DNA from: a virus
Lineage: Duplodnaviria > Heunggongvirae > Uroviricota > Caudoviricetes
IMG/VR virus record: IMGVR_UViG_2563366768_000003
Reading direction: 5' to 3' (one strand)
DNA: 52,523 nucleotides
How positions within the stretch are numbered: position 1 is the first letter of the stretch; every line of letters starts with the position of its first letter. Shown piece by piece: positions 36,001 through 39,000 of this stretch. Made by a program: the position numbers.

Positions 36001-39000
36001 CGACCGATTTATACCACATCCACTGGTGCTACAGGAAATAAAATATATTCCTGTGAGCATTATTCCGGTGGTGCAACATGGGATATTCGAAAGCCGTATA
36101 TAGATAAGGTCCTGGTTATTAATACATCAGTATATGATTAGTTGAAGCGAGTCTTTAATATTCATTTAAAATGTCTAAAAAGATGTATTATTAAAAAGTT
36201 TAGCGTGTTATCTGAATACAGGATATCTTAAATGAAGAGTATAGCAACACTGGTTGTGTGTGCAATCTCCGGGATTGCCTGTGTAAATTTATCTGCACAT
36301 GCAGCAGAAGGAGAGCATACAATTTCTCTGGGGTATGCGCACTTTCAGTTTCCGGGACTGAAGGATTTTGTAAAGGATGCGACTGCTCATAACAGGGAGA
36401 CTTTCAGTCATTTCGTCAACAGAAACTACTTTTCTTCATTGGGCGAATATACAGATGGTCGGGTCAGTGGATATGAAGGCAAGGATAAAAATCCACAGGG
36501 CATTAATATCAGGTATCGCTACGAGATAACGGATGATTTTGGCGTTATCACCTCTTTTACATGGACGCGTTCTCTCACTAACTCACAGACATTTATTGAT
36601 GTGCAGTCAGCCGATCATACCAGGAAGATTAAGAATCCGGCAGCTTCTGCCAGAACGGATATCAGGGCGAATTACTGGAGTCTGTTAGCGGGGCCTTCAT
36701 GGCGGGTTAATCAGTACATGAGTTTATATGCGATGGCAGGGATGGGCGTTGCTAAAGTTAGCGCTGACCTGAAAATTAAGGACAATATTAACAGTAGTGG
36801 CGGATTTTCTGAAAGCAACAGCACGAAAAAAACCTCCCTTGCGTGGGCTGCAGGTGCACAGTTTAACCTGAATGAGAGTGTTACACTGGATGTGGCTTAC
36901 GAAGGTTCCGGCTCTGGCGACTGGCGCACGAGTGGCGTTACTGCTGGCATTGGCCTGAAATTCTGACCTGTATCCGGTAACCGTTTACTACCCGCTGTGA
37001 TGGCGGGTTTTTTATTGCCCGTACAGGGCAAAAACCGTAAATTATGCGTGGGTGCCTTTCGGCTGATGGCTGGAGGGTGAACCTGAAGGCCTGATGTGGA
37101 AAGGCCCCGAGTCAACTTAACGTTAACCCGAGGCCCTAACACTTCGTACCTTAAGCAAGTAGAAGGTTAGCGCCTCTCTGTAAAAGGAGTCAAGCGCTAT
37201 GTCGCAAAAATCGCTTATCACCGTCACAATTTGCATGACGGTTATCTTCACCATCTGGATGTTGCACGGTTCACTGTGTGAGTTCCGGCTGAATTTGTGG
37301 GGAGCGGAGTTTGCGGCGTTCTTACAGTGTAAGCAGTAGGAAAACCGCGACGGGGACGAGAGTCCCCGTCAACTGGTTGCTGAGGTTCAGCCGATATGGC
37401 ACCCGTTTCAGGTGAGAGAATGAACGATAAAATTCTCTGGTATATGCAGCGTGTTGTGAGAAATTCCCGCAACCCTGAATTTATGAATGAAGTTAAAGAC
37501 GCCTGCCTTAAAAAGCAGGCGTTTTGTTTTGAGGCACCTGATGGCTTTTTGGTGCTGCGTTCTGTGCTCAGTGCTGATGGTATCCCTTATGTTCTGGTGT
37601 TGCTGGGCGTGTGTACGGGGAGTAACAGCGTTGAGCGTTACCTGCCGGAGGTGAAGACATTAACCCATCTGGCTGGCGGACGCTGGGCTGAGTTCCATAC
37701 GGCAAGGCGGGGATTTATCCGGCTGGGAAAACGACTGGGCTTTGAGCGAATGCCGGATGATGAGGATGGCTTCATGGTGTTCAGGATAGCGGTCTGACTG
37801 CTACAGTTTTCATCATTGTGTTTAAACCAACATTGTAATTCACATTCTGACCCTGCTCCGGCAGGGTTTTTTGTTATCCAGGGGGCCATTATGGGTGGAA
37901 GTAAAGGCGGTGGTGATACCAAAGTAAAACCAACAGCAGCGCAAATAGCACAGGAAGAAGTGGCCTGGAAAGGGTGGCAGGATTACAAAAATATCCTCCG
38001 CCCGGCTGAAGATAACTTCATGGAAAAGGTCGATGACCTGAACAGTGAGCAGCAGTACGACAATATTGCTGGCACCACAAATCTGGGGTATCAGAAACAG
38101 TTTGGCGAAGCACGGAAGGAGCTTGCGGGTAATCTTGCTCAGTCCGGCGTTGACCCATCCAGTGGTCGTTTTAATGCGGTAATGAATGCGAACCAGAGTG
38201 ACCAGGTAACCGGGCAGATTGACACAACCACACGGGGGCAGGTATCGCAGGCAGATAAGTATGTTGCCGGGCTACAGGATGTTGCTGCTCTCGGTTCTGG
38301 TCAGAAGGCGGATGCGTTACAGAGTTTTAACTCTCTGGCAGACAGCAGTCTGGCAAAAGCTAAATCGGATGCACAGGCGGCGTTTACGAAACAGCAGGGG
38401 CGAGCCTCTCTTGTTGGCGCTGGTCTGGGTGCGGCAGGTGCATATGCGATGCATAAGGCTGGCGGTAGCGGAGGAAGTGGCGGTGCTAAAACACCTGGCA
38501 CCGGCGCTAATGCCATTCAGCATCAGGCTCAGAACTGGAGACTGTAATTATGGAGTATGGCAAATACGAAACTCTCGCAAGGGCTGGTTATTCAGGAGCA
38601 GACCGCCCACAGGGTGACTGGCAGACGTCAGCAGCGCTGACACGCCAACAATACGACGACTGGCGAACCAGATATTTGCCCCGCGTGGCAAGGCTGGCTG
38701 ACCTTGGGGAGAACAACAGTCTGATGAATGCACAGCTTGCACGGGTGGGAGGCCTTGCCACTTCCAGTCTCCGTACAGCGCAGATGGCGCAGGATAACCA
38801 GATGGCGAGATACGGGGTAAACCGCCCGGATAATCCCGACAGTAATACGCTGGGGTTACGTAATGCCCTGGCAATTGCTGGCGCGAAAAATGGTATCCGT
38901 GAAGCCGAACAGGATCGCCAGATGAATATTCTGACGGGGGCTTCTGCACCGGCAAGACAGAAACTGAGTGTTGGCGGCCAACTGGTGGCAGCGTAAGGGG

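Follow-up and report, generated by a model that had tools for sequence, protein, structure and literature searches.

The window analysed here is the whole 52,523-nucleotide stretch of IMG/VR record IMGVR_UViG_2563366768_000003, a Stx2-converting lambdoid phage of the 933W/Sp5 type, and the subject of this report is a small Hok-family toxin locus that lies directly behind the phage's lom gene. An open reading frame (ORF) at 37199..37339 encodes the 46-residue product MSQKSLITVTICMTVIFTIWMLHGSLCEFRLNLWGAEFAAFLQCKQ, which carries the motifs SLCEFR and EFAAF exactly as the original prediction had described, and the consensus Shine-Dalgarno sequence (SD) that had been noted in front of it is likewise present. 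The ORF belongs to a self-contained cassette (37015..37404, about 390 bp), the sequence of which phages 933W and Sp5 share at 100% identity. Its features, listed below, are in part observed and in part predicted.

37015..37043, plus strand: candidate sense promoter of the hok mRNA (-35 box TTGCCC at 37015-20, 17-nt spacer, -10 box TAAATT at 37038-43, 6 nt before the inferred 5' end).
37050..37404, plus strand: inferred full-length hok-like mRNA of 355 nt, its ends placed from the limits of conservation and from end-to-end complementarity.
37050..37066, plus strand: predicted 5' (tac-like) element, whose partner is the 3' end in the full-length RNA and 37096-37108 in the RNA trimmed at its 3' end.
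37157->37099, minus strand: predicted Sok-like antisense RNA of about 59 nt, with inferred ends and a start about 7 nt past its -10 box.
37130..37176, plus strand: predicted target hairpin of the trimmed mRNA, to whose loop, CUUAAGCAA (37150-58), the predicted antisense RNA is complementary at its 5' end.
37164..37193, minus strand: candidate antisense promoter (-35 box TTGACT, complement of 37188-93, overlapping the hok SD; 18-nt spacer; -10 box TAACCT, complement of 37164-69).
37184-37189, plus strand: hok SD, AAGGAG, 9 nt 5' of the ATG.
37199..37339, plus strand: Hok-family toxin gene, 46 aa, from ATG 37199 to TAG 37339 (RefSeq WP_000078907.1; preprint peptide 72_1589).
37310..37319, plus strand: coding stretch UUUGCGGCGU, part of a nucleotide-invariant block; its predicted partner is 37199-37208, the AUG together with codons 2-4.
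37349..37370, plus strand: 9-bp stem-loop, GACGGGGAC with GTCCCCGTC (37349-57 with 37362-70), loop GAGA.
37378..37404, plus strand: predicted 3' element, comprising an anti-target part (37378-86, with 37148-57) and a fold-back inhibitory part (37387-94 and 37398-404).

The Hok peptide and its relatives

Profile searches place the 46-residue product firmly within the Hok family. The original prediction had named the lack of a Hok-family hit as grounds for its rejection, and the hit was found: Pfam HOK_GEF (PF01848) matches with 33.2 bits against a gathering cut-off of 22 (E 4e-8, profile positions 6-42 of 42), while PHROG 251, described as 'MokW-like host killing', scores 85.8 bits. Among NCBIfam models the best match is the HokA equivalog (NF007290; E 9e-10), with 38.4 bits, which is far under the cut-off of 89 for membership. 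Identity reaches 45% with HokA of K-12 (taken from NC_000913.3), 37% over 35 residues with HokW, the other Hok protein of the window, and 28% with what we take to be the sequence of R1 Hok. The product is a small peptide whose single hydrophobic helix lies near the N-terminus, as is usual in the family. Residues C12, T14, L26, E28 and E37 are invariant in an alignment of seven Hok proteins, the comparison sequences being those that we assume for these proteins, and C27 is invariant within the subfamily to which the peptide belongs. The conserved positions given in a 2025-26 preprint on Hok diversity agree with C12, T14, L26, C27, E28 and E37. The peptide belongs to a subfamily apart from HokA, namely cluster 72 of that preprint.

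A search of about 5.8 billion proteins recovered 56 relatives, all from Escherichia, Shigella or Salmonella, and every named one among them is a 'Hok/Gef family protein'. They form a tight subfamily of 46-residue proteins whose C-terminal half is near-invariant (GSLCE.R...GAEFAAFLQCKQ), and the median ratio of nonsynonymous to synonymous substitution rates (dN/dS) among homologs is 0.24 over 177 pairs, showing that the ORF encodes a Hok-family peptide under purifying selection. Synonymous divergence is itself lower in the C-terminal half of hok than elsewhere in the gene (0.33 vs 0.53), and within this half (37271..37339, plus strand) lies a nucleotide-invariant block, GGAGCGGAGTTTGCGGCGTTCTTACAG, predicted to pair with the start-codon region; together, these observations suggest that the C-terminal half is under overlapping protein and RNA-structure constraints. 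The locus had been described as having no other coding capacity, which is true in a restricted sense: a mechanical listing finds three other frames on the minus strand (81, 74 and 43 aa) and one on the plus strand (34 aa), none of which has a Pfam match or a RefSeq annotation.

The gene itself is not new. RefSeq labels its product a 'Hok/Gef family protein' (WP_000078907.1), pharokka-annotated phage records name the ORF 'MokW-like', and Fozo et al. (2010) put the number of Hok/Gef genes in Escherichia coli O157 Sakai at 14. The Hok diversity preprint includes the identical peptide, 72_1589, as part of a high-abundance cluster and cloned as pAZ3-72_1589; its text gives only 19_179, 60_1482 and 69_1540 as non-toxic among 45 constructs tested, from which the toxicity of the identical peptide on induction follows as a result reported by others, and the preprint expressly leaves Sok, Mok and mRNA structure unanalysed. 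Because the ORF is already annotated and the identical peptide is reported among toxic homologs, the finding is largely ordinary. The same evidence disposes of the notion that the ORF is a functionless chance frame with a hydrophobic stretch, as its very short length and the intergenic-looking stretch around it might lead one to suppose: profile matches above curated cut-offs, 56 database relatives, purifying selection and reported toxicity already refute this reading, and its probability is negligible.

Extent of the cassette and its predicted RNAs

Beyond the coding sequence, the limits of the cassette are visible from comparison of its genomic contexts. When 53 unique copies are aligned, similarity begins about 35 nt before the sequence GGGTGCC (37050) and ends at GGCACCC (37398-404), the flanks outside this span being unrelated between contexts, so that the boundaries of the cassette coincide with two complementary RNA ends. 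Of 5,426 complete E. coli genomes, about 1,750 carry a 361-nt core, which is 76-100% identical and always labelled Hok/Gef; the core is found in 198 phage records and 274 IMG/VR stretches as well, and rarely on plasmids (34 of 72,556 records). At about 390 bp, the cassette is an autonomous unit and occupies several different prophage contexts. The diversity of the relatives was supplied by a scan of viral contigs and by look-ups of the exact protein, a scan of species-representative genomes having yielded only seven loci, several of them apparent contaminants. In Salmonella (loci L090-L100, other contigs included), the cassette stands right behind gpD and ogr at the end of P2-like prophages, a second and unrelated 'moron' position for the same hok cassette, and one such copy adjoins a hicAB pair. 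Assemblies assigned to Xanthomonas pisi (an 857-bp contig with 100% identity), to a Planococcaceae metagenome-assembled genome and to Vagococcus sp. also contain copies (L003, L004 and L006), most likely through contamination or mis-binning.

A terminator-like hairpin belonging to lom, complete with T-run, lies at 36990..37008 in the window, and the hok ORF therefore sits in a separate unit. Upstream of the unit's conserved 5' limit, 28 of 29 distinct contexts keep the pattern TTGNNN, a spacer of 16-18 nt (mostly 17) and TAnnnT ending 6-7 nt before GGGTGCC, which points to the candidate sense promoter listed above. The 5' end of the mRNA is inferred to lie at 37050, which is also position 1 of the alignment with the Rfam hok/sok model (RF01794).

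Folding of the full-length RNA (37050-37404) gives a minimum free energy of -153.7 kcal/mol, compared with -116.2 +/- 6.0 kcal/mol for shuffled sequences (z -6.3; 0 of 100 as stable). In this fold, 37050-56 pairs with 37398-404 and 37059-66 with 37387-94, and the later antisense target, 37148-57, is occupied by 37378-86. The end-to-end duplex averages -28.8 kcal/mol vs -16.7 +/- 3.2 kcal/mol for shuffled 3' segments and is strong in every relative but one decayed copy, while three pairs of the extended fold-back helix have changed on both sides. On this modelling, the cassette possesses the 5'-3' fold-back (tac/fbi) of the R1 system. The 3' arm of this predicted fold-back also touches the neighbouring gene, whose RefSeq start, ATG 37396 (37396..37797, plus strand), overlaps the element at 37398-404; a shorter form from ATG 37420 spans positions 1 to 124 of 124 of the PHROG 610 profile, and because of this full coverage 37420 is probably the real start.

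A different structure is predicted when the RNA is trimmed back to the stem-loop at 37349-70. The 5' end then folds locally onto 37096-37108, a hairpin forms at 37130-76, and the probability that the start codon is unpaired rises from 0.24 at full length to 0.56. Across an alignment of 32 sequences, 88% of the cells of the trimmed fold are paired, as against 35-55% in slid controls, and eight pairs have changed on both sides vs 2.7 +/- 1.1 in shuffles, none of 500 of which reaches eight. The predicted refolding after 3' trimming, which would expose the target and leave a stem-loop at the new 3' end, is thus of the R1 type. That stem-loop had been described earlier as a hairpin with an 8-bp stem; it is present, and its stem is one pair longer. 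In five of its nine pairs both sides have changed (for example, GC in 18 and AU in 14 sequences; AU in 17, CG in 10 and GC in 3). Because no T-run follows it on the plus strand, it is not a classical terminator, and by analogy with R1 it is likely to protect the 3' end of the processed mRNA against 3' exonucleases. The fold-back and the covarying stem-loop together bear out the suggestion of the original prediction that the mRNA has a folded 3' end. In the opposite direction (37348..37371, minus strand), CGGTTTTCCT comes after the same stem-loop, which a scan rates as terminator-like and which might there stop antisense read-through from downstream.

The 180 bp upstream of the ORF had been proposed to encode an antitoxin RNA, and sequence evidence of three kinds favours this proposal: alignment of the leader with the Rfam model, promoter boxes in all relatives, and a hairpin that is stable on the antisense strand alone. 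The covariance-model search gave a divided answer. At its gathering threshold, RF01794 finds nothing at 37015..37404; in a permissive E-value mode it aligns over its full length with 37050..37212, in register with the ATG, at 35.6 bits against a gathering score of 59 (E 3e-6). Antisense -35 and -10 boxes are found at a spacing of 17-18 nt in 32 of 32 relatives, the -10 box reading TAACCT or TATCCT in 31 of them, and the TAACCT hexamer and its position match the stretch altered in the promoter-less construct of sokW, the antisense gene of the window's other Hok locus (primer YO-421). The RNA that would start from these boxes opens with a 5' tail of about 20 unstructured nucleotides (37157->37138), followed by a hairpin of 16-17 bp (37137->37101) and a UUUC tail. 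Folding of 37099..37157 gives -27.3 kcal/mol (z -4.7) on the minus strand vs -11.9 kcal/mol (z -1.5) on the plus strand, because conserved G.U pairs of the antisense hairpin turn into A.C mismatches on the sense strand. This architecture of boxes, spacing, hairpin and U-tail is the same in all relatives, whereas the tail and target patch is the least conserved segment of the cassette (0.68 vs 0.73-0.88 elsewhere). The prediction is therefore of a cis-encoded, Sok-like antisense RNA of about 59 nt with its own promoter.

Taken together, these features make it likely that the locus is a complete and probably active Hok/Gef type I toxin-antitoxin cassette, a moron inserted right after the lom terminator of a 933W/Sp5-type Stx2 phage. 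Another origin of the toxin has to be weighed at this point. The cassette runs in the same direction as the late genes on either side, and under the Q antitermination of lambdoid phages late read-through transcripts should cross such a co-oriented cassette after induction. The ORF, just behind lom, might be a plain late-operon moron, an accessory lysis or membrane factor made only from Q-antiterminated read-through past the lom terminator and with no functional antisense RNA; hokW of the same phage is indeed produced on induction and speeds growth arrest (PMC8621323), and the antisense RNA is known here by prediction. A conserved promoter of its own and the fold-back ends nevertheless travel with the ORF to unrelated contexts, such as the P2-like prophage ends, which have no 933W late operon, and the antisense promoter and strand-specific hairpin are conserved in all relatives, so that this explanation is very unlikely.

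The mok question and the route to repression

Where the cassette seems to depart from the R1 system is in its leader. No leader frame overlaps hok in the window, and among 32 relatives leader frames are conserved in neither start, frame nor stop, only two of them reaching the hok ATG. The sequence GAGG at 37130-33 aligns with the Rfam leader segment that in the hokW locus sits 9 nt before the mokW start, and in no relative does a start codon follow it, TAA or TGA mostly standing in its place. To judge from these comparisons, a conserved mok frame is lacking. Two short frames were considered as a 'mini-mok', a GTG frame at 37096..37170 (24 codons) and an ATG frame at 37094..37120. ATG 37094 and the GAAGG that precedes it are conserved in most relatives, but the name mok was withheld because the frames end at positions varying from -27 to -86, counted from the hok ATG, and one relative is without such a frame; the two may have a role as short upstream ORFs.

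The lack of mok invites the reading of the locus as a decaying relic, a hok/mok/sok descendant that has lost mok, whose hok is untranslatable and whose RNA features are left over as in the inactivated hok loci of the K-12 chromosome. There, hokA/mokA is disrupted by IS150, and here a conserved leader frame overlapping hok is missing, stop codons mostly stand behind the conserved GAGG with no start codon, and the Rfam score is below threshold. Visibly decayed relatives also exist: the leaders of L026 and L096 have had their 5' part replaced, and L061 combines a mutated 5' end (GGACACC) with a weak fold-back of -14.8 kcal/mol and a degenerate antisense -10 box, TAAGCT. What decay does not readily account for is that the peptide remains under purifying selection (dN/dS 0.24) with a strong ribosome-binding site kept, that the entire unit, including both promoters, is conserved over contexts and genera, that RNA helices stay paired through changes on both sides, and that a hairpin is maintained specifically on the antisense strand. 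Moreover, mok is missing from the whole subfamily and not only from this copy, and a stable alternative design fits this better than recent decay. A relic is, on balance, unlikely.

If the cassette is an active toxin-antitoxin system, its antisense RNA must repress hok by another route than in R1. Because a mok frame is not conserved, repression cannot act through blocked translation of a leader peptide, and because the stretch covered by the antisense RNA, 37099-37157, ends 27 nt 5' of the hok SD, it must act at a distance. When 37099-37157 is forced to be unpaired in the trimmed RNA, a small hairpin re-forms beside the start codon (approximately 37164-72 with 37193-98), and the predicted accessibility of the start codon in the window falls from 0.56 to 0.23; the direction of this re-closing is the same in 15 of 16 relatives. 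Repression would likely proceed through cleavage by RNase III, through structural re-closure, or through both.

The proposed course of events is as follows. A constitutive promoter would give rise to the 355-nt mRNA with its 5' end clamped to its 3' end, a closed form that would keep both the antisense target and the start-codon region paired. Slow 3' trimming to the stem-loop at 37349-70 would free the 5' end, which would fold locally, allowing the target hairpin to form and the start region to loosen. A short-lived antisense RNA of about 59 nt, made from the promoter overlapping the hok ribosome-binding site, would then pair with the target loop through its variable 5' tail. In the most speculative step, this pairing may trigger cleavage by RNase III and decay, by analogy with R1 and hokW-sokW, or may free the 3' arm of the target hairpin to re-close the start hairpin, or do both. 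If loss of the prophage, induction or shut-off of the host were to end the antisense supply, production of Hok and damage to the inner membrane would follow. The phage might use this to retain the prophage, to exclude other phages or, as hokW is reported to do, to assist lysis.

Several considerations weigh against this account. A strict scan for the sigma-70 consensus called no promoter at the locus in either the sense or the antisense direction, and both promoter assignments thus rest on positional conservation; the antisense -10 box TAACCT has three of six consensus positions. The closing helix 37050-56/37398-404 is nearly invariant and so supplies no evidence of covariation, and crossing 5' ends with 3' ends taken from other relatives brought no discrimination (-28.1 kcal/mol vs -28.8 for own ends), because the core of both ends is conserved. 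Since the tested structures were built on the window sequence, the comparison with the slid controls is biased in their favour; the relatives form a few clades, so that the compensatory changes represent few independent events. The Rfam match lies under its gathering score, the re-closing effect is small in most relatives (mean 0.26 to 0.16), and the path from antisense binding to translational repression without mok is a conjecture. No intrinsic terminator occurs 3' of 37404, leaving the ending of the full-length mRNA unexplained, and the main texts of two papers on small RNAs (sRNAs) of enterohaemorrhagic E. coli (PMC4104026 and PMC7547250) contain no mention of hok or sok.

The hokW locus, known systems and wider significance

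The window holds a second Hok locus, and other parts of the phage that bear on its type and on the surroundings of the cassette are listed with it.

49999..50323, minus strand: published hokW/mokW/sokW, recognized from the primers and the 51-aa toxin of PMC8621323.
36232..36966: lom, with a match to Pfam Ail_Lom.
12994..14234: ribosome-inactivating A subunit and Shiga-like toxin B subunit (stxA/stxB).
14309-14514, plus strand: STnc100 sRNA.
14516-14568, minus strand: AsxR sRNA.
72-130, minus strand: lambda cIII thermometer.

The original prediction had noted a second, hokD-like copy at 49999..50154. A Hok ORF of 51 aa is indeed found there, on the minus strand and with 81.1 bits to Pfam HOK_GEF, under the published name hokW. 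Its leader reaches the Rfam gathering score (sok, 113.5 bits), and mokW is an in-frame frame of 70 codons from ATG 50211 on the minus strand. Within 49936..50330 on this strand, about 50 nt past the hokW stop codon, the sequence CCTCAACGCACCCGC is complementary (14 of 15 positions by eye) to the 5' end of the leader, GCGGGTGCTTGAGG, and hokW thus appears to have a fold-back pair of its own. Takada et al. 2021 (PMC8621323), the one functional study of a Hok system in this phage, characterized hokW-sokW of prophage Sp5 with Northern, Western and deletion data. In their work, hokW is made on induction and speeds growth arrest, and deletion of hokW-sokW alone delays growth arrest by about 40 minutes and reduces phage yield to about half; the paper makes no mention of a second Hok locus. 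The locus at 37199..37339 is not the published hokW-sokW. Pairing between tail and target is predicted at -33 and -39 kcal/mol for the two cognate combinations and at -14 and -16 kcal/mol for the crossed ones, and on this weak predicted cross pairing the two Hok systems should not cross-talk.

Comparison with known systems brings out what is shared and what is not. With hok/mok/sok (parB) of plasmid R1, the cassette has in common a Hok-family peptide, a leader alignable to the Rfam model from its first base to the start codon, a predicted succession of RNA states at 37050-37404 that is the one described for R1, and a short predicted antisense RNA that combines a terminator-like hairpin with a single-stranded 5' tail; the antisense -35 box presumably overlaps the hok ribosome-binding site in R1 too. 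It differs in having no mok frame, in the Rfam score of 37050..37212, which is under the gathering score, and in being carried by prophages and rarely by plasmids. With hokW-mokW-sokW it shares the phage, the protein family, a similar predicted antisense architecture and the same antisense -10 box, TAACCT, at the homologous position of the leader, whereas the in-frame 70-codon mokW and the passing Rfam score belong to hokW only. The nearest named Hok is that of K-12 hokA/mokA, with which the motifs WM..SLCE and AAFL.CK are shared, and there too an in-frame mokA is annotated in contrast to the situation here. A further parallel lies outside the family, in tisB/istR-1, a type I system whose antisense RNA binds the 5' untranslated region far from the toxin's ribosome-binding site. 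At the hok locus the antisense cover is also distant from the SD and no coupled leader peptide is seen, so that repression would likewise act at a distance, via structure, a standby site or cleavage; the toxin families are unrelated, the hok antisense RNA is cis-encoded and fully complementary, and no standby site was identified at the hok locus.

As for the setting in the genome, the region 36950..37450 is 100% identical in phage 933W, in VT2-Sakai (Sp5), in many other Stx phages and in O157 chromosomes. In the toxin region (12652..14568), three tRNAs are followed by stxA/stxB and then by the convergent sRNAs STnc100 and AsxR, a layout that agrees with the published convergent sRNA pair 3' of stx2B in Sp5.

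As gene discovery, the analysis adds little. Its additions are modest ones: the RNA anatomy of the locus, the apparent lack of mok, and the presence of an unstudied second Hok cassette beside hokW-sokW. That second cassette could buffer the partial phenotypes of hokW-sokW deletion. A broader proposal, put forward tentatively and at somewhat less than even chance, is that the cluster-72 Hok loci form a naturally mok-less branch with antisense control by cleavage, by re-closing of the start hairpin or by both, and that the Sp5/933W copy is a second killer orthogonal to hokW-sokW that partly masks its deletion phenotypes. The R1 paradigm treats the mok leader peptide as essential, and the subfamily appears to be without mok yet keeps a fold-back switch and a predicted antisense RNA. 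If this is confirmed, leader-peptide coupling would be dispensable in the hok family, and these loci would offer a simpler model for structure-based antisense control.

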